Below, piece by piece: positions 2 through 36,222 of a stretch of 64,000 bases of DNA (positions are counted from its first letter, which is position 1; every line of letters begins with the position of its first letter). The position numbers and the translations under genes are program-made. The notes under the pieces were generated by a model, which was given only the letters and a program-made list of their open reading frames with translations, was not told the DNA's origin and did not search any database. The DNA lies in the NCBI RefSeq assembly GCF_988243305.1, contig NZ_OZ547136.1. The stretch is one strand, 5' to 3'.

Positions 2-4633
<4,632 letters not shown>

Positions 4634-6464: not shown

Positions 6465-7640
<1,176 letters not shown>

Positions 7641-7820
7641 TCAGAATTAACTTAACTGTGAATCATGATGTTTTTAGCATCCTGATAAGAGCTAAAAGTT
7701 TTAACGCTACGTTGTTCGATGGTCAACGCAACGAAAAACAATTCAGATTTTCTTTATAAGAATAGCTGATATTTATTAAGTTAATATTAAGCAGTGAAAT
7801 TTAGTCTATAAGATAATTGG

Positions 7821-7852
7821 CAAAAAAAAGCCCGGTGCAATATACGCCGGGC
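7821..7852 (-). terminator. rho-independent terminator downstream of gnd
   Basis: inverted repeat gcccggtg...cgccgggc followed on the minus strand by an 8-nt T-run. Confidence 0.7.
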
Positions 7853-7879
7853 CTCAATTTTATTGTTGGTTAAATCAGA

Positions 7880-9286
7880 TTAATCCAGCCATTCAGTATG
7901 GAACACACCTTCTTTATCAATGCGCTTATAAGTATGCGCACCGAAATAGTCACGCTGTGCCTGGATCAGGTTCGCAGGCAGAACAGCGGCACGGTAGCTA
8001 TCGTAATAGGCAACCGCAGCAGCGAAGGTCGGAACCGGGATACCGTTCTGTACTGCATAAGCAACGACATCACGCAGCGCCTGCTGGTAGTCATCGGCAA
8101 TTTGCTTGAAGTACGGAGCCAGCAGCAGGTTAGCGATCTGCGGATTTTCGGCATAAGCATCGGTGATTTTCTGCAAGAACTGCGCACGAATGATGCAACC
8201 AGCACGGAAAATCTTCGCGATTTCGCCGTAGTTCAGATCCCAGTTGTACTCTTCAGACGCTGCGCGCAGCTGAGAGAAACCCTGAGCGTAAGAAACGATT
8301 TTGCCCAGATACAGAGCACGACGAACTTTTTCGATGAACTCACCTTTGTCGCCAGCTGGCTGCGCTTGCGGGCCAGAGAGAACTTTAGATGCGGCAACAC
8401 GCTGCTCTTTCAGAGAAGAGATATAACGTGCAAACACAGACTCGGTAATCAGCGACAGCGGTTCTCCGAGATCAAGCGCGCTCTGGCTGGTCCATTTACC
8501 GGTACCTTTGTTAGCCGCTTCATCCAGGATCACATCAACCAGGTAGTTACCGTCTTCATCTTTTTTGGTGAAGATGTCTTTGGTGATGTCGATCAGGTAA
8601 CTACTCAGTTCACCGTTATTCCACTCGGTAAAGGTCTGTGCCAGTTCTTCGTTAGAGAGATTCAGGCCGCCTTTCAGGAGAGAATAGGCTTCAGCAATCA
8701 GTTGCATATCACCGTATTCAATACCGTTGTGAACCATCTTCACATAGTGACCCGCGCCATCAGCACCAATATAGGTAACGCACGGTTCGCCATCTTCAGC
8801 AACGGCGGCGATTTTGGTCAGGATCGGAGCAACCAGTTCATAGGCTTCTTTCTGCCCACCAGGCATGATGGAAGGCCCTTTCAGCGCCCCCTCTTCACCG
8901 CCGGAAACACCGGTACCGATGAAGTTAAAACCTTCGGCAGAAAGCTCACGGTTACGACGAATGGTGTCCTGGAAGAAGGTGTTACCACCATCAATGATGA
9001 TGTCACCTTTATCGAGGTATGGCTTGAGAGAATCAATAGCAGCATCCGTGCCTGCACCTGCTTTCACCATTAACAGGATGCGACGAGGCGTTTCCAGAGA
9101 TTCAACGAACTCTTTCACCGTATAGTAAGGAACCAGTTTCTTGCCTGGATTTTCGGCAATCACTTCTTCCGTCTTCTCACGGGAGCGGTTGAAAATAGAG
9201 ACGGTATAACCACGGCTTTCGATGTTGAGCGCAAGGTTGCGCCCCATCACTGCCATACCGACGACGCCGATCTGTTGCTTTGACAT
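7880..9286 (-). CDS. gnd: 6-phosphogluconate dehydrogenase, decarboxylating
   Basis: 468 aa ORF, N-terminal [16 protein letters not shown]-binding motif. Confidence 0.95.
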
Positions 9287-9448: not shown

Positions 9449-10819
9449 TTACTTATTCAGTAACTCAAGGATAAGTTTTGTCTTTTCTTCCATCAGCGGC
9501 ACATCACCGCGCGATTCCACATTCAGGCGCACCACCGGTTCGGTGTTGGAGGAGCGCAGGTTAAAGCGCCAGTCGGCAAAGGTCATGCTGATGCCATCGG
9601 TACGATCCACCGCCAGCGCCTCGCGGCTAAAGTGCTGTTCGACGCGGTTAATCGCCTCAACGGGTTGCGCCAGTTTGCTGTTGATCTCACCGCTTGCCGG
9701 AAACGCTGCCATCCGGTCGCGCACCAGTTCGCCCAGCGTTTTTCCTTTCAGGCACACCAGTTCGGCTACCAGCAGCCACGGGATCATGCCGCTGTCGCAG
9801 TAAGCGAAATCACGGAAGTAATGGTGAGCGCTCATTTCGCCACCATAGATGGCGTCTTCCTTGCGCATACGTTCTTTAATAAAGGCGTGTCCGGTTTTCG
9901 ACATCACCGGAGTGCCGCCCGCGGCGGTCACCACATCAACGGTATTCCAGGAGAGACGTGGATCGTGGATGATCTTCGCGCCGGGATTTTTTTCGAGGAA
10001 CGCTTCTGCCAGCAGGCCGACAATGTAATAGCCCTCGATAAACTGCCCTTTTTCGTCAAACAGGAAGCAGCGGTCAAAATCGCCATCAAAGGCAATGCCC
10101 ATATCCGCTCCGTGTTTGATGACCGCATTGCGGGTGTCGTCGCGACATTCCGGCAGCAGCGGATTAGGAATACCGTTGGGGAAATTGCCGTCCGGCGTGT
10201 TGTGTACTTTGATTAATTCCACCGGTGCGCCGAGGGCTTTAAATCGGGCTTCAATGGCGTCCACCACCGGACCCGCCGCGCCGTTCCCGGAGTTAATCAC
10301 CAGCTTGAGCGACGTGAGGTTTTTGACGTTGATATAACCGAACAGGTGCTCAACGTAAGCGTCACGCAGATTGATTTGTTGATAGCGACCGCGTTTGGTT
10401 TCATCGACGGGAGGAAAGTCGTTGGCTTCTGCCAGACGCTGGACATCGCGTAGTCCGGTATCACCGCTGATCGGGCGAGCCCCCTCGCGAACCAGCTTCA
10501 TGCCGTTATAATCCATCGGATTATGGCTGGCGGTGACTTCAATGCCGCCATCCACGCCGAGATGGAACGTGGCGAAATAGATTTCTTCGGTGCCGGACAT
10601 GCCAATATCCAGCACATCGACGCCCGCATCCTGTAAACCTTTCGCCAGCGCCAGTTTTAAGGTTTCGCTGGTGAGGCGGGCATCACCGCCTAACACAATG
10701 GTTTTCGGTTTGAGAAATTCGCCATAGGCGCGACCAATGCGCCACGCAATATCTTCATTCAGTTCTTCGCCTAATTTCCCGCGAATATCATAGGCTTTAA
10801 AGCAGGTTAATTTTTTCAT
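9449..10819 (-). CDS. manB: phosphomannomutase, O-antigen cluster copy
   Basis: 456 aa ORF; nearly identical over most of its length to the colanic acid copy at 31900-33270; diverges only in the last ~15 codons. Confidence 0.9.
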
Positions 10820-10843: not shown

Positions 10844-11602
10844 TTATTTATGCGCAAATAATTGCATTAGTTTTGATATTTTTCTGATAATGATAGCAAT
10901 TTTCCAATTTACATTATGGTTTTTCATAACTTCTACAATTTCCTTTGTACTTGATATCGCGTTATCAATTCTGGTACTTTCCCCACCCAATCTCATCTTT
11001 ACAAATACTTGAGGAACATAAATAACTTTAATATCATCACGTTTCAAAATCCTGACCATCTGATCATAGTCTGCAGCAATCCTATAGGATAAATCAAAAT
11101 ATCCATCGTCTTTATATAATTCCCTCCTCATATAGAAAGATGGATGCGGTGGTGCCCAGCCTAATGATAGCTTAGAACGTTTAAAAGGACCACTACGCCA
11201 GTATCGTTTGATTATATCAATTTGGTTTTTTTCGAAAAAAACCAAATCACCGTATACAACATCCGCTTTTGTCTCATGGAAACGGCTTACAATAGTTTCA
11301 ATAATATCAGGTCTTGCTAAAAGGTCATCAGAATGAACGAATCCAATAATATCTCCCGTAGATAAATTTATACCTTTATTTAAAGCATCATAGATACCGT
11401 TATCGCTTTCTGATAGACATTTGGTTACTCTTGTTGATACTTCGTTAATTAGTTTTAACGTATTATCTGTAGAACCACCATCAATAATTATATACTCTAT
11501 ATCTTTATAGGTTTGCAACTCTATTGACTCTAAAGTATCCCTTAAAGTCTTTTCACTATTATAAGTCACTGTAATAATACTGACTTTCATTTTAACATCC
11601 AA
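10844..11602 (-). CDS. glycosyltransferase, family 2-like
   Basis: 252 aa ORF; N-terminal SIITVTYN...DGGSTD motif typical of GT-A fold; AT-rich; start may be the internal Met at MKVSIIT. Confidence 0.75.
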   Translation of the reverse strand: MDVKMKVSIITVTYNSEKTLRDTLESIELQTYKDIEYIIIDGGSTDNTLKLINEVSTRVTKCLSESDNGIYDALNKGINLSTGDIIGFVHSDDLLARPDIIETIVSRFHETKADVVYGDLVFFEKNQIDIIKRYWRSGPFKRSKLSLGWAPPHPSFYMRRELYKDDGYFDLSYRIAADYDQMVRILKRDDIKVIYVPQVFVKMRLGGESTRIDNAISSTKEIVEVMKNHNVNWKIAIIIRKISKLMQLFAHK

Positions 11603-11673: not shown

Positions 11674-13074
11674 TTAGATTCTAACAACATCATCTTCATC
11701 CAAGTAAACACCTGAACGTACCTCAATAATCTCCAAAGGGATCTTTCCTGGATTCTCAATAAAATGAGGTACACCTATTGGTATATAAGTTGATTCATTT
11801 TCAGAAACAAGAAATATTTCATCTTCATAATGGACTTTTGCTGTTCCAGAAACAACAATCCAATGCTCAGTACGATGGTAATGAATCTGTTTAGCAGTTT
11901 TATGTCCAGGATGAATAACGACATGTTTAACCTCAAATCGAGATCCTTCCGCTATAGAGTCATGACTGCCCCATGGCCTAAATATTTCACGATGCTGCAG
12001 ATATTCCGTACGGTTATTAACTTTAAGTTTTTCTACAATATTTTTTACCTGTTGAACTTTATCTTTATGCGCAACGAGAATAGCATCTTTAGTTTCAACA
12101 ACTACTAAATCTTTAACTCCTACTACACCAATTAATCTATGTTGTGAGTAAAGATAACTGTCAGAAGAATCATGAATTAATACATCTCCTCTAATTGCAT
12201 TTCCACTTTTATCTTTTCTGCTAATTTCCCATAATGCAGACCAAGAACCAACATCGCTCCAGTGGGCATTTAATGGAACTACCACAGCCTCTGTTGTTTT
12301 CTCCATAACAGCGTAATCAATGGATTCTTCAGGGCAACAACTAAATGAGTCATTATCTATACGGATAAAATCAAGATCTTGTGTAGAGGACTTCAATGCT
12401 TGTTGGCATATTTTTAGTATGTCTGGTCTAAATTTATTCAACTCATCAATAAACACAGAAGCCCTAAACATGAATATTCCACTATTCCAAAGATAATCTC
12501 CATCTTCAAGATATTTTTTGGCCACATCTAGCTCAGGCTTTTCAACAAAAGCAGAAACTTTAAAACCATATTCATTTAAATTTTCTCCGGTTTTTATATA
12601 GCCATATCCAGTTTCGGGTTTGGTTGGCACAATACCAAAAGTTACCAGCTTACCTTCCTCTGCAAATTCTTTTGCAGCCAATATTGACGATATAAAGCGC
12701 TTTTGGTCTTGTATTTCATGATCGGCTGCTAGTACAAGCAGTATTGGATCCTCACCTGATGAAATCGCTTTAAGAGCAGCAAGCGCAACTGCGGGGGCAG
12801 TATTACGACCTACCGGCTCTAGTAAAATGCCACTATTCGCTAAATTTACATTACGCATCTGTTCTGCAACGATAAAACGATGAACTTCATTACAAATAAC
12901 CAGAGCAGGACGATGTTCAACCCCTTCAAGCCTTCTTAAGGTCTCTTGTAGCATAGTCAAACGACTAGTTAACGACAGGAATTGCTTCGGATATAGTGTT
13001 CGAGAAAGTGGCCACAATCTAGTTCCAGAACCACCGGCCATTACAACAGGAAGTAGCATATAAATAACCTTCAC
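11674..13074 (-). CDS. manC: mannose-1-phosphate guanylyltransferase, O-antigen cluster copy
   Basis: 466 aa ORF; [19 protein letters not shown] nucleotidyltransferase motif; paralog of the colanic acid copy but divergent and AT-rich. Confidence 0.88.
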   Translation of the reverse strand: MKVIYMLLPVVMAGGSGTRLWPLSRTLYPKQFLSLTSRLTMLQETLRRLEGVEHRPALVICNEVHRFIVAEQMRNVNLANSGILLEPVGRNTAPAVALAALKAISSGEDPILLVLAADHEIQDQKRFISSILAAKEFAEEGKLVTFGIVPTKPETGYGYIKTGENLNEYGFKVSAFVEKPELDVAKKYLEDGDYLWNSGIFMFRASVFIDELNKFRPDILKICQQALKSSTQDLDFIRIDNDSFSCCPEESIDYAVMEKTTEAVVVPLNAHWSDVGSWSALWEISRKDKSGNAIRGDVLIHDSSDSYLYSQHRLIGVVGVKDLVVVETKDAILVAHKDKVQQVKNIVEKLKVNNRTEYLQHREIFRPWGSHDSIAEGSRFEVKHVVIHPGHKTAKQIHYHRTEHWIVVSGTAKVHYEDEIFLVSENESTYIPIGVPHFIENPGKIPLEIIEVRSGVYLDEDDVVRI

Positions 13075-13526
13075 TTAAAATAATTTTTTGTGTACTGATG
13101 AACTGAGGAATTAGCTAACAATTCGGCTATATCGAACCAATTGTAAGTACTATGTTGTAGTGTTGGATAGTTAATTTGATGTGGCATCAAACTAATCTCA
13201 TATCCGTGTACGACATAATGAGTTGAAAAACAAGTCCCAGAAAAATTGTCGCTGTAGAAATGTTCATAAATCCCAAGAAATTTTGCTTCATTAATGCTAA
13301 TTTGAACACCCAATTCTTCAAAAGTAACTCTTTTGAATGCGTTCTCGAAAGACTCATCTTTAAGAATCCGTCCCCCCGGCACAAACCAATAATTTTGTGC
13401 TGGACGATTAAGGCGCTGACCAAGCAGCGCCTTACCATCTTCGTTTCTTATAATAAGGTCTATCGAGATTAGTGGAGTATGTTCAACTATTGATTTAAAT
13501 AACTCTGTTTCTAATCTCTTGTTCAA
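13071..13526 (-). CDS. gmm: GDP-mannose mannosyl hydrolase (Nudix)
   Basis: 151 aa ORF, Nudix-like, between fcl and manC as in the colanic acid cluster. Confidence 0.8.
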   Translation of the reverse strand: MNKRLETELFKSIVEHTPLISIDLIIRNEDGKALLGQRLNRPAQNYWFVPGGRILKDESFENAFKRVTFEELGVQISINEAKFLGIYEHFYSDNFSGTCFSTHYVVHGYEISLMPHQINYPTLQHSTYNWFDIAELLANSSVHQYTKNYFK

Positions 13527-13528
13527 TA

Positions 13529-14494
13529 TTAACTCCTAAATGAGTCAAGATTATTTATAAACCATTTATATGTTAATTCTAGTCCTTGTTTTAAATTATA
13601 ACGATATTTCCAGCCCAAATTCTCAAGGCGTGTAACATCCATAAGTTTACGAGGCGAACCATCTGGTTTTGTTATATCAAAAACAATTTTTCCATCATAG
13701 CCAACAACTAAAGCCATTGTTTCTGCCATTTCACGTATGGAACAATCAACACCAGTACCTACGTTAATATGAGATAACATTGGTTGAGTATTTTTTTTAT
13801 AAATTTCATCATCAAGCTCCATCACATATACTGATGCAGCTGCCATATCATCAACATATAAAAACTCGCGTTTTGGAGTTCCCGTTCCCCAGACAACCAC
13901 TTCATTTAAACCAAGTTCCTTTGCTTCATGAAAACGCCGCATAAGCGCTGGAATTACATGTGAGTTATTGGGATGAAAATTATCATTCATACCATATAAG
14001 TTAGTAGGCATTACACTGCGATAATCACATCCATATTGGCGATTATAAGATTCACATAGCTTTATACCTGCTATTTTGGAAATAGCATAAGGCTCATTAG
14101 TAGGCTCAAGAGTTCCCGTCAAAAGTGCAGATTCTTTCATTGGCTGTTCTGCAAACTTTGGATAGATACAACTTGACCCTAAGAATAATAGTTTCTTTAT
14201 GCCCGCTTTATAAGATGAGTGAATAATATTGCTTTCAATGAGAAGGTTCTGATAAATAAATTCAGCTGGAAAAGTGTTATTAGCATGAATTCCTCCTACT
14301 TTTGCTGCTGCAAGGTAAACCTGATCTATTCTCTCTTGCTCAAAAAAACATTCAACATCCTTTTGAACTGTCAAATCGAGTTCTTTGTGAGTTTTGACAA
14401 TTAACTCAACATCATTACGTGCTAATAATTGACGACAAATAGCAGAACCAACCATCCCACGATGTCCAGCCACAAAAATTCGCTTCTTGGTCAT
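13529..14494 (-). CDS. fcl: GDP-L-fucose synthase
   Basis: 321 aa ORF; N-terminus [13 protein letters not shown] matches the colanic acid Fcl paralog. Confidence 0.88.
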
Positions 14495-14497
14495 ACT

Positions 14498-15619
14498 TTA
14501 ACGCTCCAAAGAGACTGCCACGTCAAAACCATGGCTTTTAAGAAGTGCATGCTGTTTAGCTTTTTCTAAATCACTAGCCACCATTTCTGCACACATTTCT
14601 TCAACTGTAATCTCTGGCTCCCAACCCAAGACATTTTTTGCTTTTGTTGGATCACCAAGAAGAGTTTCAACTTCTGCTGGTCGAAAATAACGAGGGTCAA
14701 CGCGAACAATAACATCACCAATATTAACACCAACGGCGCAATCTGATGTTTTATTTACAACCATTGCAACCTCATCAACACCAGTACCGGAAAACTCAAG
14801 TTCAAGTCCAACTTCTTTAGCAGACATACGGACAAATTCACGTACAGATATTTGTTTGCCAGTGGCAATAACAAAGTCTTCTGGCTGGTCTTGTTGAAGC
14901 ATCATCCATTGCATACGAACATAATCTTTCGCATGCCCCCAATCACGTAAAGAATCCATGTTGCCAAGATATAAGCATTTTTCTATTCCCTGCGAAATAT
15001 TAGCTATAGCACGTGTGATTTTACGTGTTACAAACGTTTCCCCACGACGTGGGGATTCATGATTGAACAAAATACCGTTGCATGCATACATTCCATAAGA
15101 CTCACGATAGTTTACAGTGATCCAATATGCATACAGTTTAGCTACGGCATAAGGTGAACGAGGATAGAACGGCGTTGCCTCTTTTTGTGGAACTTCCTGA
15201 ACTAATCCATACAATTCAGAGGTTGACGCCTGATAAAATCGGGTTTTTTTTTCTAATCCCAAAAAACGAATAGCTTCCAATAATCGTAAAGTACCTATAG
15301 CATCAACATCAGCTGTATATTCTGGGGATTCGAAGGAAACAGCTACGTGACTCATTGCTCCGAGGTTGTAAACTTCATCAGGTTGAACTTCAGATAATAT
15401 ACGAGTCAAATTAGAAGTATCTGTTAAGTCACCATAATGAAGGTGTAATTTTAAATTAATATTATGGGGATCTTGGTATATATGGTCAATACGTCCAGTA
15501 TTAAAAATAGAAGAACGTCGTTTTATTCCATGAACCTCGTAACCTTTATTTAGTAGAAACTCTGCCAAATATGAACCATCTTGACCAGTAATGCCAGTAA
15601 TTAATGCTTTCTTTGTCAT
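14498..15619 (-). CDS. gmd: GDP-mannose 4,6-dehydratase
   Basis: 373 aa ORF; [20 protein letters not shown]-terminus, highly similar protein to the colanic acid Gmd, but AT-rich DNA. Confidence 0.9.
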
Positions 15620-15629
15620 AAAATTATTC

Positions 15630-16664
15630 CTACAGTAGTTTCTTGTAAATATCGATAGTTTTGTCAGTACATTTTTTCCAAGAAAAACGTTGTGCTTGAG
15701 ATAAACCTTTCTTAATAATTTGATTTCGATTTCTATTTATAAATGATATACCATCAATAAGGTTGCTTATACTTAACTCATCCATCAAATAACCGGCGTC
15801 ACCTGCAACCTCTGGTATTGAGGAGTGATTATACGCAATGAATGGGCATCCTGCCCTCATTGCTTCTAAAAGAGGAATACCAAATCCTTCATAACTTGAC
15901 GGATAAATAAGAGAATGAGCTTGATTAAATTTTAGATTCAACTCTTGCTCAGTTAAATATGGATAATGAATATATCGATATGGTATATATTTATCAAGTA
16001 AAAATTTCTCAGCCTTTCCCAAAGGGCCTCCACCTACAATATATAGTTTGAACCCCTCTAATTTGTTTATTGCTTCAACTGCAAGTTGAAAGTTTTTATA
16101 TGCTTTTCTCGAACCAATAAAAAGCATGAAATTATCATCATCGTTATAATTAACGTTTTTTAATTCATAAAAATTATCAGACACCCCATTGTGAATGATT
16201 TCGATTTTACTTTCAGGTACTGGACAATACCTCAACAAATCATTGGCAGTATTTTCTGAAATGCAAATTATTTTATCACTGTTTTTTATAGCATTGTACT
16301 TCTGATGACAATGAACGTATTTACGTAAACCTGACATATATTTTTCATATGTAAAGTCATGTACTGTTGTTATGTTTTTATTTTTTTTGCCCTTACTAAA
16401 TCTATAATAACTAGAATGTAATAGAGAGTTTTCAGGAATATCAACAGCTCGATACCTTTCAAGAAAGCGAGGATATAGATTAATATAACGTCCAGGTTGT
16501 CGCACATCTTCACTTATAAATTGACAGCCTGTATTCTCATAGTTTAATATCGTATATTCAATATTTGTGGCTTTTATCGCTTTTATTATTTGATTATAAT
16601 AAACAGAAATGCCACCGTATGACTGGAGATTATATATAATACCATCCAAATATAACATAGGCAC
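15630..16664 (-). CDS. glycosyltransferase, GT-B fold (family 1/4-like)
   Basis: 344 aa ORF; C-terminal [19 protein letters not shown] motif typical of GT4 retaining transferases. Confidence 0.75.
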
Positions 16665-16673
16665 CTTTTATAT

Positions 16674-17687
16674 TTAATTGTATCCATCAGGATTTAGCGT
16701 ATGCCATTTCCACGCAGAAGAAAGCATTTCGGTCAAATCTCGCCTAGCCTTCCAGTCCAGTTCTTTTTCAGCTTTGGAAACATCCGCCCAACATTCTGCA
16801 ACATCGCCGCTTCGGTTAGGGCCAAAACTATAATTAATATTTTTCCCAATAATTGATTGAAATGTTTTTATTACTTCTAATACAGAATATCCTCTACCCG
16901 TACCTAAGTTATATATTTTATAATTTCCTCCTTTGCCAAACATTTTAAATGCTGAAATATGCCCCTCAGCTAAATCATTTACATGAATATAATCTCTGAT
17001 ACCAGTCCCATCAGGCGTTGGATAGTCATGACCATAAATAGTAAGCGCAGGTAATTTACCTAAAGCAACATTCATCATATATGGAACTAAGTTAGCAGGA
17101 GTACCTCTGGGATTTTCACCTATTAACCCAGACTCATGCGCCCCCACTGGATTAAAATATCGCAAAATAATCACATCTAATTTAGGGTTTGCCAGAGAAG
17201 CATCTTTTAATATAACCTCGGAGTAATATTTACTGGTCCCGTATGGATTCGTTGTTTCACCTATACGACATTTTTCATTGATAGGTATCGTTTCTGGAAG
17301 ACCGTACACCGTAGCAGATGAGCTAAAGATAATTTTATTTACATGAAAGATCTTCATTAACTCTAACAAATTTAAAAGCCCAACAATATTATTCATATAA
17401 TAACGTATAGGACTTTGAACTGATTCTGAGACAGACTTAAGGCCTGCAAAATGTAATACTTTAGAGAATGTGTGATTCGTGAATATAGTCTTTAATTCTT
17501 TTTTGTCCAATAAATCTACCTTATATGCTCTGATTTTCTTACCACTAAGCTTTGAAATGACTTTGATGATATCTTCTGTAGAATTAGAAAAATTATCTAT
17601 GATGACAACGTCTTCATTCTGCTCCAATAATGACAGAACAGTATGGGACCCAATATATCCAGCTCCACCCGTAACTAATATTGTCAT
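16674..17687 (-). CDS. NAD-dependent sugar-nucleotide 4-epimerase (GalE family)
   Basis: 337 aa ORF; VTGGAGYIGSH Rossmann motif and YGTSK catalytic motif; substrate not determinable from sequence. Confidence 0.8.
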   Translation of the reverse strand: MTILVTGGAGYIGSHTVLSLLEQNEDVVIIDNFSNSTEDIIKVISKLSGKKIRAYKVDLLDKKELKTIFTNHTFSKVLHFAGLKSVSESVQSPIRYYMNNIVGLLNLLELMKIFHVNKIIFSSSATVYGLPETIPINEKCRIGETTNPYGTSKYYSEVILKDASLANPKLDVIILRYFNPVGAHESGLIGENPRGTPANLVPYMMNVALGKLPALTIYGHDYPTPDGTGIRDYIHVNDLAEGHISAFKMFGKGGNYKIYNLGTGRGYSVLEVIKTFQSIIGKNINYSFGPNRSGDVAECWADVSKAEKELDWKARRDLTEMLSSAWKWHTLNPDGYN

Positions 17688-17696
17688 AAAAACACC

Positions 17697-19019
17697 TTAT
17701 TTGAATTTAAAAAAAACTATTTGCATCGATAATCTCAAGCATATGTATGCCATAAAGAACATACCTAATTCAAATATCATAGAAGAAAACTCTGAGCGTT
17801 GGAAATTGATAGATTGGGAAAGAAAAACAAGATAAAGAAAATAGTTGCTCCCAATTAACCTTTCCATTATATATGAATAACCACATAAAATGGCAGGAAA
17901 TATAATTACACCATAATAATTATAATTAATAAAAGCTTCTGTAAAAGGAGTAAATGCATATCCCATCATAAACTCTTGACTTGGCAAATAAACTTCCTTT
18001 GCAAATTGAATAGCTAATGTGTCTGGCTTTAATCCCATAAATAATTCTTTTGGTATAAAGTTTACAATGAACTGAAGATAGGATATACCAAAAAATTGAG
18101 TCTGATAATGTATCGAAGAATAATATTGAAGTGTAGATATAGGATAAATAAATTCACCCAAAGCATTCAATAATCTTATGCTTGATTCGACATTATAATC
18201 TGAACGATATATCCCAAAAAGTATAATCGTTGATACAAATAGAATACTGAACAACGCTACTTTTAATGGTATCTTAAATTTAGCTTTATAAAGTGATAGC
18301 AATACAGCCATAATAAAAGATAAAGCAATTTCTCGTCTTGAACCTACCAGCATTAAAGTATAAAAATATAAAAGCACAGGTATGCTGTATATTACGAAAC
18401 TATAATTTGTGAGACTTTTTTTTACTATCTTTAAATCAAGTAAAATCCAAAAATAAGCAATAACCACATATTTCAGATACCATCCACTTTGACTTACCGA
18501 ATTAATTAACTCTAGGCGAGTACTTTCGCCCAAAGCATTCAGAGAAAGATTTCTTGATTGATATAGAAAAAATAATGATATTAACCATGCTATGCATGAT
18601 GGAATAAATAGATTATAGTTATTGTCATAGTTATATTGTTTGTTTAAAAGAAATATATTGATACCGTGAGGCCTAATCAAACTAATCGATGCAACTATAC
18701 ACCAAACAGCAACACAATATAAGAATGAAGTGTTGATTATATTATTTTCAACATTAAATACATTAACACCAAAAAAATAATACAACAAAAAAGACACAAA
18801 AAAATAAAAAGGCGATAATATTATAAATATTCCATCAAACCATACCCACATTCGATTATATACAAAAAAAAGAATTGCAATTGTAAATATTACAGATAAA
18901 AACCAAATTAGGATAGCATCAATTTCAACTTTGACAGAAGTGCTCAATACAGCAATCATTATCAACCCAATAAAGCCATAAAATTGAGCCAATACCAGTT
19001 TGTATTGTTTATAAATCAT
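17697..19019 (-). CDS. wzy: putative O-antigen polymerase
   Basis: 440 aa, very hydrophobic multi-spanning ORF, very AT-rich, within O-antigen cluster; assignment by topology and context only. Confidence 0.6.
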   Translation of the reverse strand: MIYKQYKLVLAQFYGFIGLIMIAVLSTSVKVEIDAILIWFLSVIFTIAILFFVYNRMWVWFDGIFIILSPFYFFVSFLLYYFFGVNVFNVENNIINTSFLYCVAVWCIVASISLIRPHGINIFLLNKQYNYDNNYNLFIPSCIAWLISLFFLYQSRNLSLNALGESTRLELINSVSQSGWYLKYVVIAYFWILLDLKIVKKSLTNYSFVIYSIPVLLYFYTLMLVGSRREIALSFIMAVLLSLYKAKFKIPLKVALFSILFVSTIILFGIYRSDYNVESSIRLLNALGEFIYPISTLQYYSSIHYQTQFFGISYLQFIVNFIPKELFMGLKPDTLAIQFAKEVYLPSQEFMMGYAFTPFTEAFINYNYYGVIIFPAILCGYSYIMERLIGSNYFLYLVFLSQSINFQRSEFSSMIFELGMFFMAYICLRLSMQIVFFKFK

Positions 19020-19854
19020 ATTTTAACAATCCCGTCCAGAAACCGATTAATCTGTACATATATAATTTTTTTTGTTTTTTTAAAACGATACCAAAAAATG
19101 ATTTTACTGTGATCCTGAAAATTTCCAATAGTAATAAATAACGAGATTTCACTAAATACTTCTTTATCACGACACCATATCCAACTGCATATTTTCTGTA
19201 TTTTTCTGGTATCCCTTCACAATATAAATCATTATCGTGATAAACTCCAAATATAGGTTGAAAACATACTCTAAACCCAAGAGATTTCAGCCGAAAAAAT
19301 AACTCCGTTTCTTCGGATCCACCGAATAAAGTACCAACACCTAACCTTTCATCAAAATATATATTATCGAGTTTATGAGTAAAAATAAAAGTACCCACAC
19401 TTAGTGACGATTTAATTATTTGATTATAACCCATTTCCTTTTTAGTTTTAGGATAAACTCTATTGGCATAAGATTTCATTGTTTGAAAATCTAATACAGG
19501 AACTGAAAGAACGGTTTCTTTTTTGATATTTGATTGAATCACCTTCTCAAAAAAATCAGGAGCATAAAAAGCATCATCATCACAGAACCCAATAACATTA
19601 CCACTGCATAGTTTAAGCCCTTGATTACGAGCAGTTGAAAGTGGTACTTTATTTGATTTAACCAACTTGTATTTTATATTTTTTGCGTGTTTTAAAAATA
19701 ATTGCTCAATTATGATATCATCAGTCTGATCAATAAATATAATTTCTAGGTTTTTGTACGTACTGCTAGCTATGCTATTTAGCAGTCGTTCAATTTCTTT
19801 ATCCCTTCCACCTTGAGTTGTGCCTATCAAACTAATTTTATAAAAGTTATTCAT
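19009..19854 (-). CDS. putative glycosyltransferase
   Basis: 281 aa ORF in O-antigen cluster, GT2-like N-terminal region, overlaps wzy by 11 nt. Confidence 0.6.
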   Translation of the reverse strand: MNNFYKISLIGTTQGGRDKEIERLLNSIASSTYKNLEIIFIDQTDDIIIEQLFLKHAKNIKYKLVKSNKVPLSTARNQGLKLCSGNVIGFCDDDAFYAPDFFEKVIQSNIKKETVLSVPVLDFQTMKSYANRVYPKTKKEMGYNQIIKSSLSVGTFIFTHKLDNIYFDERLGVGTLFGGSEETELFFRLKSLGFRVCFQPIFGVYHDNDLYCEGIPEKYRKYAVGYGVVIKKYLVKSRYLLLLEIFRITVKSFFGIVLKKQKKLYMYRLIGFWTGLLKYDL

Positions 19855-19855
19855 A

Positions 19856-20776
19856 TTAATATCCTTTTTTTAAGATTGAATTAATCTTTATTTTACAATA
19901 ATAAGCAAATTTTCTAAGAAAAACACCATTTATATATTTAATCTTTACTCCTAACTTAGAAAAAATAATAAAATACACCTTAAAATAATAACAAATAGCA
20001 TTAAGAAAACGATGACTTGATTGCGGAAACAAAACCATCCCTAGCTCATCTTTATCGAGAATAATCCCCTGTTTTTTTAAATTACCAATGGCAATAGATA
20101 TGTGAATATCTGCTTGTATATGCTTTTTTATATTCGATATTTGATTTCCGTGATTTCGATAATAAAGCAAGGGTATATTTATATTACAGAATTTTCCGTA
20201 GTTTGCTAATCTACTCCAAAACTCATAATCTTCAGCATATTGGTAGCGTGGCTTATAATATAGGCATTCTTTTTTTATAATGCTGCTTCTCATCATTACA
20301 GTTGGATGAGCAAAACAACTGCCCACCAACAATCCTATTTTACAGGCTTCGTCTGAGTTAGGCATTTTTATAATTTTTCCGCTATTAACAGCTGACTCAA
20401 AAACTTTGATATTAGTTCCACAACACGCTATTTTTTGATCTGCATCCATTATTTCAACTTGTAATCTCAACCTTTCTCTGTGAGCAATATCATCAGCATC
20501 CATTCTAGCAATATACACTCCCGTAGCCATGTCTAATAATTCATTTAAAGTAGCTACTATCCCTTTATTTTCTCTATGCTTAATTTTGAATATCGCGGGA
20601 TATTTATTTTTATATTCATCAAGTATCTTTTGTGTACCATCCTGCGAGCCATCATTGATGATGATAATTTCAAATATTTTATATGTTTGTTCCAATATAC
20701 TGTCAATGCATGCGCCTAAGTATTTTTCAGCATTATATACCGGTATTATAACGGATACTTTGTTTTTATTAATCAT
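19856..20776 (-). CDS. glycosyltransferase, family 2
   Basis: 306 aa ORF; VSVIIPVYNAEKYL...INDGSQD motif. Confidence 0.78.
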   Translation of the reverse strand: MINKNKVSVIIPVYNAEKYLGACIDSILEQTYKIFEIIIINDGSQDGTQKILDEYKNKYPAIFKIKHRENKGIVATLNELLDMATGVYIARMDADDIAHRERLRLQVEIMDADQKIACCGTNIKVFESAVNSGKIIKMPNSDEACKIGLLVGSCFAHPTVMMRSSIIKKECLYYKPRYQYAEDYEFWSRLANYGKFCNINIPLLYYRNHGNQISNIKKHIQADIHISIAIGNLKKQGIILDKDELGMVLFPQSSHRFLNAICYYFKVYFIIFSKLGVKIKYINGVFLRKFAYYCKIKINSILKKGY

Positions 20777-20782
20777 AATATA

Positions 20783-22054
20783 TCATACTTTGTTTTTATT
20801 AAGCAGATAACAGATCGTTACTATTAAGGAGAACATATATAATGCTTGAGATATTATATACGCTTTAAAAACATAAGAAATTTGAGCATTTTCGACGTAG
20901 CATAACGAATACTTACTTAATATACAATATACAGACCATTGTAACACTTCTAACACTATATATTCTTTTACGAATGCTTTGCTAATCAGCAAATAACCAA
21001 GCACCCATGCAATTATCTTAAAAAAATCTCCAATTAGTTGATAAACTATAACATCAACAATAGGAACGAACTCGTGTGTAAATAGAATATTTACTATCAA
21101 ACCGCGAAATGTATACATCAAGACTGAAGATATACAAACTAACGGAACCAAATACAAATAACAAACTTTTATTTCATTAAGCAATTCTGAACGGTTAGAT
21201 GCACTTGAAAACCTTGGAAAGAAATATACCCCCAATGTAGTCGTAATTAACATCAAATAGACTGAACTTATTCTATTAACAGCATCCCACAACCCAGCAT
21301 ACTCAATATTTATTGATGTTATGATTTCATTTCTCACATATAACGTACTAACTGGCACTAATATAGCTGAAGTGACTGTCATTAAAGAAAAAATTATGAT
21401 CCGTTTTAATATTGAAATATCAATTCGATTGCAATTATTAACATAGTATTCTCTTAAATATTTTTTTGAGTAAAAAAAAGTCACAAAAAACAATATAGCT
21501 TGATTTGAAACTACAGCAATCAATGCTCCTCTCATACCAAAAGAGATTGTCAATATAAAGGCGTATATTGCAGATATTAAACTCGATATGATATTAATCC
21601 ATATATAATTTTTAATAAATGACAATCCATTTAACATAGAAAGAATTATATTATTCCATGCATATAAAATAACACTCCCTCCCAAGAAATAAATTGCGAT
21701 GCTTACTTCATCATTAGAATTGAAAAATTGTTCGATAATTATATTTTTAAAGATAATTATGATAACAGCGGTTATAAATCCCATTATAGTAGACAAATAA
21801 ATTGCATTAATCCAAAAACTCCAGATTTTTTCCTTATTACTATTCTTATACTCTGACGTATACTTAACAATACTCGTTGAAATAGCTTGTGATGGCGCAA
21901 CCATAGCTATATTAAGGATATTTTGGATTTGGCCAATAAGTGCATATCCAGACGTACCTAAATATATTGCGAATACTTTATTAAGTCCAAGTAGAGTTGC
22001 TATTTTGACAAATACAGAAAGGCCATTAAGAATAAAGACATTATATACTTTCAC
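20783..22054 (-). CDS. wzx: putative O-antigen flippase
   Basis: 423 aa multi-spanning membrane ORF, first gene after the JUMPstart element. Confidence 0.65.
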   Translation of the reverse strand: MKVYNVFILNGLSVFVKIATLLGLNKVFAIYLGTSGYALIGQIQNILNIAMVAPSQAISTSIVKYTSEYKNSNKEKIWSFWINAIYLSTIMGFITAVIIIIFKNIIIEQFFNSNDEVSIAIYFLGGSVILYAWNNIILSMLNGLSFIKNYIWINIISSLISAIYAFILTISFGMRGALIAVVSNQAILFFVTFFYSKKYLREYYVNNCNRIDISILKRIIIFSLMTVTSAILVPVSTLYVRNEIITSINIEYAGLWDAVNRISSVYLMLITTTLGVYFFPRFSSASNRSELLNEIKVCYLYLVPLVCISSVLMYTFRGLIVNILFTHEFVPIVDVIVYQLIGDFFKIIAWVLGYLLISKAFVKEYIVLEVLQWSVYCILSKYSLCYVENAQISYVFKAYIISQALYMFSLIVTICYLLNKNKV

Positions 22055-22116: not shown

Positions 22117-22160
22117 ATAAACCACGCTACCGCCCCTGGCTATACAGCTACCAGAGCACT
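22117..22160 (-). promoter_or_regulatory. JUMPstart element with ops site upstream of the O-antigen operon
   Basis: plus-strand cacgctaccgcc at 22123-22134 is the reverse complement of the ops sequence GGCGGTAGCGTG; same motif context recurs upstream of wza. Confidence 0.8.
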
Positions 22161-22407
22161 GCGTGTGTGTCTACAATGTAACGAGCGTTTCATGCTCGCA
22201 ATAAACAAAAAACCAAAAGCTAAATTATCTTACTAATCAGCTCTGAAAACAAGGAAATGTGTAAAAAAAGTCCTATTGCTGACTTGTTATTATCCCGAAT
22301 ATTTATAAATCAATAATAGCAGGAAGACTCGCAACAAGTTACTTTGCCTGCTAATCTTCACAACTATTACAGTCTTTTCGCATCTGTTGCATCCGATTCG
22401 ATTTTCA

Positions 22408-23304
22408 TTATTCCCTTAACAGCTTCTCAATCCCTTTACGGAACTTCGCCCCTTCTTTTAGGTTACGCAGTCCATACTTCACAAACGCTTGCATATAACC
22501 CATTTTTTTACCGCAGTCGTAGCTGTCACCGGTCATCAGCATGGCATCAACAGACTGTTTTTTCGCCAGTTCGGCAATAGCATCAGTCAGTTGGATACGT
22601 CCCCATGCACCTGGCTGAGTGCGTTCCAGTTCCGGCCAAATATCGGCAGAAAGCACATAACGGCCCACGGCCATGATGTCTGAGTCCAGCGTCTGCGGCT
22701 GATCCGGTTTTTCGATAAATTCAACAATGCGGCTGACTTTACCTTCGCGATCCAGCGGTTCTTTGGTCTGGATGACGGAGTATTCAGAGAGGTCACCCGG
22801 CATACGTTTTGCCAGCACCTGGCTACGGCCCGTTTCATTGAAGCGTGCAATCATGGCAGCAAGGTTGTAGCGTAGCGGGTCGGCGCTGGCGTCGTCGATC
22901 ACAACGTCTGGCAGCACCACGACAAATGGATTGTCACCAATGGCGGGTCGTGCACACAAAATGGAATGACCTAAACCTAAAGGTTCGCCCTGACGCACGT
23001 TCATAATAGTCACGCCCGGCGGGCAGATAGATTGCACTTCCGCCAGTAGTTGACGCTTCACGCGCTGCTCAAGGAGAGATTCTAATTCATAAGAGGTGTC
23101 GAAGTGGTTTTCGACCGCGTTCTTGGACGCGTGAGTTACCAGGAGGATTTCTTTGATCCCTGCAGCCACAATCTCGTCAACAATGTACTGAATCATTGGC
23201 TTGTCGACGATCGGTAGCATCTCTTTGGGAATCGCCTTAGTGGCAGGCAACATATGCATCCCAAGACCCGCTACCGGTATAACTGCTTTTAAATTCGTCA
23301 TCAT
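22408..23304 (-). CDS. galF: UTP-glucose-1-phosphate uridylyltransferase-like regulatory subunit
   Basis: 298 aa ORF, nucleotidyltransferase N-terminus, conserved position upstream of O-antigen cluster. Confidence 0.9.
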
Positions 23305-23542: not shown

Positions 23543-24538
23543 TTACTCAGAAACAAACGTTATGTCGTCTTTTTTGGCATGAACGAATTCATACTGCAGA
23601 GTTCGATCCAGACCTTGCGACAGCGTATACGGTGCCACAAAACCTGAAGAATGCACTTTCGTTGCGTCAAACTGTGTTGTTGCGCAGAATTTTTTCACGC
23701 GCACTGAGCTGACAGCGTATTTTTTGCCCGTAATTTTGCTCAGGATATCAAAACAATATCCACCCAGCATTCCTAGTGGGTAAGGCAAGTGCATAGAAGG
23801 GATCTTTTTGTTCAGGCTTTGTTCAACTTCAGCAACCAACTGGTTCATGTTCAGGTCTGGCTTATCAACGTAGTTATAAACCTCATAACCTGCGGCAACA
23901 TTCTTCAGTTTGTACTTGATAAACTCAACAATGTTTCCAACATAAGCCATGGACTTATAGTTAGTTCCTGCACCCACCATCATAAACTTGCCGCCAGCGA
24001 TCTGTTTCAGCAAGTTATAGACGTTACCGCGGTTGCGTTCACCGAAGATAACGGTAGGACGGATGATGGTTAATGAACGTTCTGTTGGTGCTTTGTTATA
24101 CCATTCACGCAGCACTTCCTCTGCCTGCCACTTACTTTTGCCGTAGTGGTTGAAAGGGTCGTGTGGATGGTTTTCGTCAGGGTTATGTTTGTTCAAACCA
24201 TAAACAGCAACGGAACTGGTAAAGATGATATTTTTAACGCCATTTTTTTCCATGGCCGCCAGCACATTGCGGGTACCCTGAACGTTGACATCATAATAGA
24301 GAGAAGTAGGGCTGACGTCATCGCGGTGTTCCGCTGCCAGTAGTACAACAGTGTCAAAACCAACTAATGCCTGGTCGAGTGCCTGTTGATCGCGAACATC
24401 GCCAATCTGTGTGATTTCTGGATAAAAGTGGCTCTGCTGTTTGTCCAGGTTCTTGATATTAAAGTCAGCAATTGCCGTTTCAAGTAGTCGGGTTCCTACG
24501 AATCCGGAAGCTCCTATGAGCAAAACGTTATCGTTCAT
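23543..24538 (-). CDS. gne: UDP-N-acetylglucosamine 4-epimerase-like protein
   Basis: 331 aa ORF; N-terminal LLIGASGFVG Rossmann motif; lies between wcaM and galF as recalled for gne in some E. coli lineages. Confidence 0.75.
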   Translation of the reverse strand: MNDNVLLIGASGFVGTRLLETAIADFNIKNLDKQQSHFYPEITQIGDVRDQQALDQALVGFDTVVLLAAEHRDDVSPTSLYYDVNVQGTRNVLAAMEKNGVKNIIFTSSVAVYGLNKHNPDENHPHDPFNHYGKSKWQAEEVLREWYNKAPTERSLTIIRPTVIFGERNRGNVYNLLKQIAGGKFMMVGAGTNYKSMAYVGNIVEFIKYKLKNVAAGYEVYNYVDKPDLNMNQLVAEVEQSLNKKIPSMHLPYPLGMLGGYCFDILSKITGKKYAVSSVRVKKFCATTQFDATKVHSSGFVAPYTLSQGLDRTLQYEFVHAKKDDITFVSE

Positions 24539-31899: not shown

Positions 31900-33270
31900 T
31901 TACTCATTCAGCAACGTCAGCAGAGTTCGCGTTCGCGCTTCCATCAGCGGCACATCACCGCGCGATTCCACATTCAACCGCACCACCGGTTCGGTGTTGG
32001 AGGAGCGCAGGTTAAAGCGCCAGTCGGCAAAGGTCATGCTGATGCCATCGGTGCGATCCACCGCCAGCGCCTCGCGGCTAAAATGCTGTTCGACGCGGTT
32101 AATCGCCTCAACGGGTTGTGACAGTTTGCTGTTGATCTCACCGCTTGCCGGGAATGCCGCCATCCGGTCGCGCACCAGTTCGCCCAGCGTTTTTCCTTTC
32201 AGGCACACCAGTTCGGCGACCAGCAGCCACGGGATCATGCCGCTGTCGCAGTAAGCGAAATCACGGAAGTAATGGTGGGCGCTCATTTCGCCACCGTAGA
32301 TGGCGTCTTCCTTGCGCATACGTTCTTTAATAAAGGCGTGTCCGTTTTTCGACATCACCGGCGTGCCGCCAGCGGCAGTCACCACATCAACGGTATTCCA
32401 GGAGAGACGTGGATCGTGGATGATCTTCGCGCCGGGATTTTTTTCGAGGAACGCTTCTGCCAGCAGGCCGACAATGTAGTAGCCTTCGATAAACTGCCCT
32501 TTTTCGTTAAACAGGAAGCAGCGGTCAAAATCGCCATCAAAGGCAATGCCCATATCCGCGCCGTGTTTGATGACCGCATTGCGGGTGTCGTCGCGGCATT
32601 CAGGCAGCAGCGGGTTAGGAATACCGTTGGGGAAATTGCCGTCCGGTGTGTTGTGTACTTTGATTAATTCCACCGGCGCGCCGAGGGCTTTAAAGCGGGC
32701 TTCGATGGCGTCAACTACCGGACCCGCTGCGCCGTTCCCGGAGTTGATCACCAGCTTGAGCGGCGTGAGATTTTTGACATTGATATAACCGAACAGGTGA
32801 TCAACGTAAGCGTCACGCAGGTTGATTTGCTGATAGCGACCGCGTTTGGTTTCATCGACGAGAGGAAAGTTGTTGGCTTCAGCCAGACGCTGGATGTCGC
32901 GCAGTCCGGTATCACCGCTGATCGGGCGAGCCCCTTCGCGCACCAGCTTCATGCCGTTGTAATCCATCGGGTTATGGCTGGCGGTAACTTCAATGCCGCC
33001 ATCCACACCGAGATGGAACGTGGCGAAATAAATCTCTTCGGTGCCGGACATGCCAATATCCAGCACGTCGACGCCCGCATCCTGTAAACCTTTCGCCAGC
33101 GCCAGTTTTAAGGTTTCGCTGGTGAGGCGGACATCACCGCCTAACACAATGGTTTTCGGTTTGAGAAATTCGCCATAAGCGCGACCAATGCGCCAGGCAA
33201 TATCTTCATTCAGTTCTTCGCCTAATTTTCCACGAATATCATAGGCTTTAAAGCAGGTTAATTTTTTCAT
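31900..33270 (-). CDS. manB: phosphomannomutase, colanic acid cluster copy
   Basis: ORF 31900-33318; start set at [10 protein letters not shown] (cat at 33268-33270), giving 456 aa. Confidence 0.92.
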
Positions 33271-34998: not shown

Positions 34999-36222
34999 TT
35001 ATCCCCGAATATCATTTATAAATTGACGTAACACGTTCTCTTTATCGAGCGTGCGTTCGGCATATTCACGTGCCACCGTGTTGTGTTTGGGCAGCAGAAG
35101 CGCCTGACGGATCCCCGCCACCAGCGCCTCGACCGATTCCGGTTCTACGCAAACCGCAATTCCCGGAAAGGTTTCGCAAAGCTGCCCCAGTTCTGTGTGG
35201 GCTTCCGCGGTAATCACCGCGTTACCGCCTACCGCCAGAATATTGGTCAGTTTCGACGGCAATACGGCATCTGCCGCGCCGCGTTTTTGCACCACCAGAT
35301 GGCAATCGCCCATCTTCAGCAGTGCGGGTAAAGCGTCATACGATTGCAGCGGGAAAAATTGCATGTTGCGCAGTCCACGCTGCTGCGCCATTTTTTCCAG
35401 CCGCGCTTTGCCGCCGCCCTGCCCGACAATGGCAAAAATCAGCGGTTCATCGCGCAGGAGATCGGCAGCTTCAATAACGTTTTCCAGCCCCTGCTTTTCA
35501 CCAATATTGCCGGAGTAAAGAATGATTTTTTTGTTATCCGGCAGGCCAAGCTGGTTACGAAGAGCGTCAACATCGGCATCTGCAACATGCTGAAAACGGG
35601 CAATTTCCGACCAGTTGGGGAAGAAGATGACGTTTTCCGCCGCCACGCCTTTTTCGATGGCTTTATTCATCATCGAACGCGAAATCGTGGAGACGTTATC
35701 GACGTTATGCAGTCCGCTACGTTCGAACGCCGTTGCCAGCTGTGCCACTTTGCCGCCTTTGCCTTTTCCGGCAAGGCCCAGCCCCAGCATGGCGTCCACT
35801 TCGTAATCCTGAATATGCAGCACGGTACGCGCACCAGAGAGTTTCGCCAGCAGGCGCATTCCCGGCGTGCAAAACAGCGTTGGCACCACGCCAATAATGC
35901 GATCCGGCTTCCAGCGACGTTGCGCCATCAACGGGAAAAAACTGCTGACGGCAAAACTGCCGAGATGTAACAGGCGTTTCAGGGTGCTCGGCTGTTTTGG
36001 CACGTACAGCGGGCAGCGCCACACCGTAGCGGCCCCCTCTTCTCGTTTGTATCGCCAGGCGGAATAGTTCTCGCCCACCTGCCACTGCGGGTAGTAAGGT
36101 GGTGCGGTAATGACCCGCACCTCATGACCTTGTGCCGCCAGCCATTCCACCATCTCGCCGGTGTATTTGCCGATGCCGGTTAACTCCGGCGAGTAGTTAA
36201 TGCCGTAGACCAGTATTTTCAT
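34999..36222 (-). CDS. wcaI: colanic acid glycosyltransferase
   Basis: 407 aa GT-B fold ORF, cluster position. Confidence 0.88.

Follow-up and report, generated by a model that had tools for sequence, protein, structure and literature searches.

A predicted Gne and a Gnu-type C4-epimerase for the two GalNAc positions of the Escherichia coli O125 O antigen

The gene upstream of galF in E. coli O157, formerly called gne, was found to encode an enzyme that is inactive on UDP-GlcNAc and converts UndPP-GlcNAc to UndPP-GalNAc (Rush et al. 2010, in the account given in PMC3682973). Cunneen et al. 2013 renamed this gene gnu and assigned it to clade D (PMC3682973). In the same scheme, in-cluster GalE-like suppliers of UDP-GalNAc are named gne and belong to clade A, where they are intermixed with GalE, and the UDP-GlcNAcA 4-epimerases are named gnaB and belong to clade B (PMC3682973). 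Because clade A mixes both, phylogeny alone cannot split Gne from GalE, and 'galE' is the default name recommended there (PMC3682973). The presence of gnu fits the GalNAc pattern in 104 of 115 serogroups, and that of gne in 105 (Cunneen et al. 2013, PMC3682973).

Within the GalE family, enzymes that accept UDP-GlcNAc have a large C5 pocket, owing to Cys or Ser, both small, at the position of E. coli Tyr299 (human Cys307) (PMC6668579). The Y299C substitution raises the activity of E. coli GalE on UDP-GalNAc 230-fold, and the reverse change in the human enzyme, C307Y, abolishes its UDP-GalNAc activity (PMC6668579). The GalE of Bifidobacterium longum handles UDP-Gal and UDP-GalNAc equally (PMC6668579).

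For serogroup O125, the structure of the O125ac unit was solved by Furevi et al. 2022 and reads ->4)[beta-D-Galp-(1->3)]-beta-D-GalpNAc-(1->2)-alpha-D-Manp-(1->3)-alpha-L-Fucp-(1->3)-alpha-D-GalpNAc-(1->, and O125ab carries in addition an alpha-Glc on Man (PMC9680116). The unit thus holds two GalNAc residues (the initial alpha and an internal beta) together with Gal, Man and L-Fuc; uronic acids are absent (PMC9680116). The two O125 epimerase genes were described by these authors as 'presumably gnu and gne' (PMC9680116). The O125 entry of Table S2 in Cunneen et al. lists two main-chain GalNAc, a need for both gnu and gne, and gnu present as expected (PMC3682973). Thus, neither the general logic of the Gne/Gnu pair (2010-2013) nor its assignment to O125 (2013 table, 2022 paper) is new.

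The 64,000-nt stretch of DNA that we analyzed (the window) shows the order his–wzz–ugd–gnd–cluster–galF–gnu–wcaM, with the whole of 5.3-26 kb (wzz to wcaM) on the minus strand. When 5,426 complete E. coli genomes were searched with a 6.5-kb probe of the serogroup genes, seven matched, with an identity of 99.8-99.9%; they include an O125ac:K+:H10 strain and NCTC8623, whose gene order is that of the window. Because wzx and wzy are labelled 'O125 family' by PGAP in all seven of these near-identical genomes, we identified the locus, by its sequence, as the E. coli O125 O-antigen gene cluster. The cluster spans manB to wzx (Table 1). Its AT-rich part, bounded by the GT2 gene (10844) and wzx (22054), has 28-39% GC, and the flanks are richer in GC (galF 50.9%, gnd 50.6%).

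Table 1. Features of the O125 O-antigen locus in the window, listed from gnu to manB
Feature	Position	Strand	Evidence and remarks
gnu, predicted UndPP-GlcNAc 4-epimerase (formerly 'gne')	23543..24538	-	331 aa, 44.7% GC; between wcaM and galF
galF	22408..23304	-	TIGR01105 688 bits (cut-off 659) and annotation; conserved 5' flank, between gnu and cluster
JUMPstart element with ops	22123..22161 (ops GGCGGTAG at 22127-22134)	-	39 bp, exact ops match; sequence cagtgctctggtagctgtatagccaggggcggtagcgtg; 69 nt upstream of wzx start
wzx, O125 O-unit flippase	20783..22054	-	PGAP 'O125 family O-antigen flippase'; WzxE-like, E=7e-42
wetD, GT2 glycosyltransferase	19856..20776	-	GT2 matches; proposed beta-Gal-(1->3) transferase, final sugar (hypothesis of PMC9680116)
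wetE, GT2 glycosyltransferase	19009..19854	-	PGAP GT2; proposed beta-GalNAc-(1->2) transferase, would use UDP-GalNAc from Gne (hypothesis of PMC9680116)
wzy, O125 O-antigen polymerase	17697..19019	-	PGAP 'O125 family O-antigen polymerase'
In-cluster GalE-family 4-epimerase, predicted Gne	16674..17687	-	337 aa, 35.4% GC
wdaF, GT4 (retaining) glycosyltransferase	15630..16658	-	PGAP GT4 and GT4-type matches; proposed alpha-Man-(1->3) transferase (PMC9680116)
gmd-fcl-gmm-manC, GDP-L-fucose/GDP-mannose pathway	11674..15619	-	Annotation and ORFs; AT-rich, 35-39% GC
wdaG, GT2 glycosyltransferase	10844..11590	-	PGAP GT2 and GT2 matches; proposed alpha-L-Fuc-(1->3) transferase on UndPP-GalNAc, the predicted product of Gnu (PMC9680116)
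manB, phosphomannomutase	9449..10819	-	Annotation; final cluster gene ahead of gnd

Some details of the cluster deserve mention. The wzy and wetE genes overlap by 11 nt, and the start of wetE differs among RefSeq records, which give the gene a length of 840 nt (NCTC8623) or 846 nt (C 236-04A). The manB gene has 54% GC, is called 'cpsG' by PGAP, and is 94.6% identical in nucleotides and 96.5% in amino acids to the colanic-acid cpsG (31900-33270) about 22 kb away. The gmd, fcl, gmm and manC genes share only 54-70% nucleotide identity with their colanic-acid twins. These values suggest mosaicism, or homogenisation with cpsG, at the 3' end of the cluster.

The in-cluster protein passed the GalE equivalog model TIGR01179 with 430.5 bits (cut-off 262.3) and NF007956 with 414.4 (cut-off 394). 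Its numbering runs 1:1 with that of E. coli GalE, with K84, S124, Y149, K153, N179 and N199 all kept, and its NAD-binding motif is GGAGYIG at residues 7-13 (G7-G10-G13). It could be aligned over its full length with GalE proteins of solved structure, the top PDB match being the group-2 B. longum GalE 6k0g (E=1.7e-117). These scores and alignments make the in-cluster protein a genuine member of the GalE family.

Residue 299 is Cys in the in-cluster protein (DVAECWAD) and Tyr in the housekeeping GalE of E. coli (PAYWAD). Consistent with this, the E. coli GalE Y299C mutant (1lrk) scored above the wild type as a match to the protein. All of the best 120 database homologues carry Cys in the same column. 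We used K-12 galE as the comparison sequence for the housekeeping enzyme, and a distant DNA search returned in-cluster paralogues from O128, O166, O6 and O103; those of O166, O128 and an O6-like cluster again have Cys at 299, and K-12 GalE has Tyr. Cunneen et al. give the name gne where the polysaccharide holds a non-initial GalNAc, and O125ac/ab has an internal ->3,4)-beta-D-GalpNAc (structure from PMC9680116). Taking into account this one pocket residue, the homologues and the sugar structure, we predicted that the in-cluster protein is a wide-pocket Gne acting on UDP-GlcNAc/UDP-GalNAc, which probably interconverts UDP-Glc and UDP-Gal as well.

The same gene could also be read as a plain GalE that gives extra UDP-Gal for the side-chain galactose, with UDP-GalNAc coming from another source. 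The protein does pass the GalE equivalog model, PGAP names it GalE, the O unit contains one Gal (PMC9680116), and 'galE' is after all the default name for clade A (PMC3682973). However, Cys299 is not the Tyr that bars N-acetylated substrates (PMC6668579), and UDP-Gal is already made by the housekeeping galE, present in 5391 of the 5426 complete genomes. The internal GalNAc, moreover, needs UDP-GalNAc, and the annotation of the cluster contains no other candidate source. We therefore consider a plain GalE very unlikely and keep to the predicted Gne.

The in-cluster gene itself was found in 7 of the 5426 complete E. coli genomes, under the PGAP name galE in all seven. In a search of a 5.8-billion-protein database, where the 8000 candidates sharing most words were scored, its closest relatives outside O125 had 58-60% identity. 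On this measure the O125 Gne is an isolated lineage, with no relative above ~60% identity among the 8000 scored candidates, and its donor would be AT-rich. In the course of the comparisons, we noticed that the record NZ_CM135829.1 ('strain DH5alpha') has, at locus coordinates 2271-3278, a galE paralogue amid glycosyltransferase genes and cpsB, unlike the K-12 rfb region. The ATCC 25922 and Nissle records give the same match pattern, and the DH5alpha label or the assembly may be wrong.

We then compared the two epimerases side by side. A first-pass annotation of the sequence had reported an epimerase ORF inside the cluster and another upstream of galF, and both are present as described (Table 1). 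It had further held that they share the Rossmann and YxxxK motifs and are otherwise clearly different proteins, and this was borne out. Both match PF01370 strongly (E=3e-53 for the in-cluster protein, E=4e-30 for the protein upstream of galF). In the same order, GxxGxxG spans residues 7-13 in the one and 9-15 in the other, and the YxxxK of the active site is formed by Y149/K153 and Y132/K136. Their mutual identity is 24% over 259 aligned residues (BLASTP E=3e-9). Hydropathy predicted no transmembrane segment in either. The claim that both belong to the GalE family stood for the in-cluster protein alone: the protein upstream of galF missed the cut-off of TIGR01179 by far, with 70.3 bits against 262.3, and aligned over its N-terminal 170 residues only. 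As for composition, the in-cluster gene is indeed AT-rich (35.4% GC, GC3 27.8%) next to the gene upstream of galF (44.7% GC, GC3 47.6%), but the latter, which had been taken as normal, lies below the ~51% of galF and gnd.

Such a contrast of 35% and 45% GC speaks of different histories, and gnu lies outside the galF-gnd cassette and is carried by roughly one in four E. coli genomes, across many serogroups. Both facts would suit two redundant epimerases, one a leftover of O-antigen cluster replacement, as the first-pass annotation had offered for one option. The 24% identity and the different curated families argue against redundancy, and so does the tracking of the GalNAc pattern by gnu and gne across the 115 serogroups. 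In O86, either knock-out changes the LPS (PMC3682973), and the O125 unit requires an initial as well as an internal GalNAc (PMC9680116). We regard redundancy as even less probable than a plain GalE, and retain the reading of two non-redundant enzymes.

The protein upstream of galF shares 330 of its 331 residues with WP_000999466.1, the protein encoded at the same locus in the O157:H7 strain NE1127; the sole change is V59 in the window against A59. PGAP names WP_000999466.1 N-acetyl-alpha-D-glucosaminyl-diphospho-ditrans,octacis-undecaprenol 4-epimerase. The best families for the protein are extended SDRs of the HpnA, LegB, OleD and 3-beta-HSD types, and its predicted triad is S109/Y132/K136. 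At at least 95% identity, the gene was found in 1314 of the 5426 complete E. coli genomes, and homologues with 80-90% identity are scattered across Enterobacterales, unlike those of the orphan in-cluster gene. The order wcaM, gnu, galF places it outside the galF-gnd cluster, where gnu genes are expected. [quoted passage not shown] From the near-identity with the O157:H7 protein, the family affinities and the location, we identified the protein as Gnu, the putative UndPP-GlcNAc 4-epimerase. The name gne that the first-pass annotation had given to this gene goes back to annotation before 2010 and has been replaced by gnu.

The structure of Gnu was also considered. Solved relatives are distant (E ~1e-17), one being a sterol-4-alpha-carboxylate 3-dehydrogenase (NSDHL), and no solved structure closer than ~25% identity was found in the PDB. 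An AlphaFold2 model, for which 34 homologues with 80-89% identity were used, had low confidence: its mean pLDDT was 69.5, and the active-site segment 110-134 lay below 50. Foldseek of this low-confidence model against the PDB returned generic extended-SDR sugar epimerases/dehydratases at ~20% identity and TM ~0.6. These results confirm the fold and the absence of a close relative among solved structures, and carry no information on lipid substrate binding. The sequence of Gnu is nearer to lipid-substrate SDRs (HpnA, OleD, 3-beta-HSD, NSDHL) than to GalE, yet lacks a predicted membrane segment; its hydropathy maximum (1.45, Kyte-Doolittle, 19-residue window) falls in a Rossmann strand.

That the protein upstream of galF is instead a soluble UDP-GlcNAc 4-epimerase (the old 'gne'), with WecA transferring GalNAc-1-P directly, has the original annotation behind it, the name 'UDP-N-acetylglucosamine 4-epimerase' that persists in some homologue entries, and the missing transmembrane segment, but is hardly credible beside the O157 enzyme, which by the account of Rush et al. 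2010 in PMC3682973 acts on UndPP-GlcNAc and not on UDP-GlcNAc, the 330/331 identity to the O157:H7 protein, and the affinities to lipid-substrate SDRs.

Taken together, we are highly confident that the O125 pair are non-redundant C4-epimerases that both make GalNAc, each on a carrier of its own and for a different position in the unit. The gene identities, motifs, Cys299, the 330/331 match between Gnu and the O157:H7 protein, and the operon layout come from the window and the genomes compared with it, and the O125 structure and the O157 Gnu activity come from the literature; the substrate range of the O125 Gne we infer. We propose that WecA, encoded elsewhere, would make UndPP-GlcNAc, and that Gnu, an extended SDR, would epimerise it at C4 to UndPP-GalNAc, which would become the initial alpha-GalNAc. 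L-Fuc, Man, GalNAc and Gal would then be added by WdaG, WdaF, WetE and WetD in that order, as proposed by Furevi et al. (PMC9680116). The internal beta-GalNAc requires UDP-GalNAc, which the housekeeping E. coli GalE, with its narrow Tyr299 pocket, is unable to make. The Cys299 pocket of the in-cluster paralogue would admit the N-acetyl group and let Gne interconvert UDP-GlcNAc and UDP-GalNAc. UDP-Gal would come from the housekeeping GalE and probably from Gne too. For both enzymes we expect bound NAD+, a Ser/Tyr/Lys triad and a transient 4-keto intermediate.

The first-pass annotation had suggested that two epimerases mean two different 4-epimerised sugars in the O unit. It was right in that the predicted specificities differ and that the unit does contain Gal besides two GalNAc (PMC9680116), but the pair is better explained by a single sugar, GalNAc, on two carriers (PMC3682973, PMC9680116). 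Its alternative of a uronic acid fell away: the O125 unit has none (PMC9680116), and on the TviC model the in-cluster protein reached 81.8 bits against a cut-off of 760. The protein outside the cluster had no match to that model, so that neither is of the GnaB/WbpP/TviC type, and no WbpO-like gene is present in the annotated O125 cluster.

The two genes also differ in their transcriptional setting. Because the JUMPstart element with its ops sits upstream of wzx, gne falls inside the operon and gnu outside it. The O125 operon, including gne, is expected to be RfaH-dependent, and gnu is not. The ops sequence GGCGGTAG has four further matches in the window, at 35229, 47902, 48489 and 59324. Upstream of gnu, a promoter-like site was found at 24671-24644, agreeing with the consensus at 10 of 12 positions. 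From this layout we infer that gne and gnu form separate transcription units. In NZ_CP109924.1, the O125ac:K+:H10 strain C 236-04A, the promoter/JUMPstart region of the O-antigen operon, which separates wzx from galF, holds a transposase gene of ISKpn26 (IS5-like) at locus coordinates 6914-7894; the insertion is absent from the window and from the other six O125 genomes.

We wondered about a further possibility, that this isolated in-cluster lineage is a group-2 epimerase with full activity towards both kinds of substrate, and that UDP-GalNAc and UDP-Gal both arise from the RfaH-controlled operon. We advance this tentatively and give it somewhat less than an even chance. If the enzyme is bifunctional, O125 O-antigen synthesis would be independent of the catabolite-regulated gal operon.

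The pair illustrates an accepted rule, by which an initial GalNAc goes with Gnu and an internal GalNAc with Gne. This rule lets the first sugar and the donor needs of an O unit be read from sequence. Automated readers will go on flagging the pair, because the in-cluster gene bears no other RefSeq label than 'GalE' and the name 'gne' clings to the outside gene in older annotation. A quick test is to look at the position of Tyr299, and the Cys found here supports the published 'presumably gne' for O125. What is new in the present analysis is this explicit check of Cys299, which backs that assignment over the RefSeq label 'GalE'; its importance beyond annotation is small.

Similar arrangements were seen in other clusters. 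In the O166 cluster (NZ_AP048497.1), gnu lies upstream of galF and its product has the same accession as the O157:H7 protein, and a GalE paralogue with Cys299 is the last cluster gene. In the O128 cluster (NZ_CP025859.1), an in-cluster GalE with Cys299 adjoins gnd. From the O166 and O128 examples, the O125 arrangement is therefore a recurrent pattern.

Among the closest described systems is E. coli O86 with gne1 and gne2, now gnu and gne. As in O125, gnu is located upstream of galF and a GalE-like gne within the galF-gnd cluster (PMC3682973). The O86 unit likewise has two GalNAc, one initial and one not, which is given as the reason for its two genes (PMC3682973). Gne1 of O86 and the O157 enzyme are the same in sequence (PMC3682973), as are the O125 Gnu and the O157:H7 protein in all but one residue. 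The two loci differ in that gne2 directly follows galF in O86, whereas gne is placed mid-cluster between wzy and the GT4 gene in O125. Compared with O125, E. coli O157 has one GalNAc only and no in-cluster gne, and its Gnu carries A59 instead of V59.

On the side of the GalE family, the group-2 enzymes B. longum GalE (6k0g) and human GALE have all sugar-pocket residues in common with the O125 protein, including Cys299 and Asn199/200 (PMC6668579), with ~51% identity for 6k0g. These enzymes belong to catabolic or Leloir pathways, whereas the O125 protein is an O-antigen-cluster paralogue known from sequence. The housekeeping E. coli GalE, of group 1, has the same family, fold and triad as the O125 protein and 48.5% identity to it. 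It differs in its Tyr299, its narrow pocket, its restriction to UDP-Glc/Gal and its normal GC, against Cys299 and 35% GC in the predicted O125 Gne.
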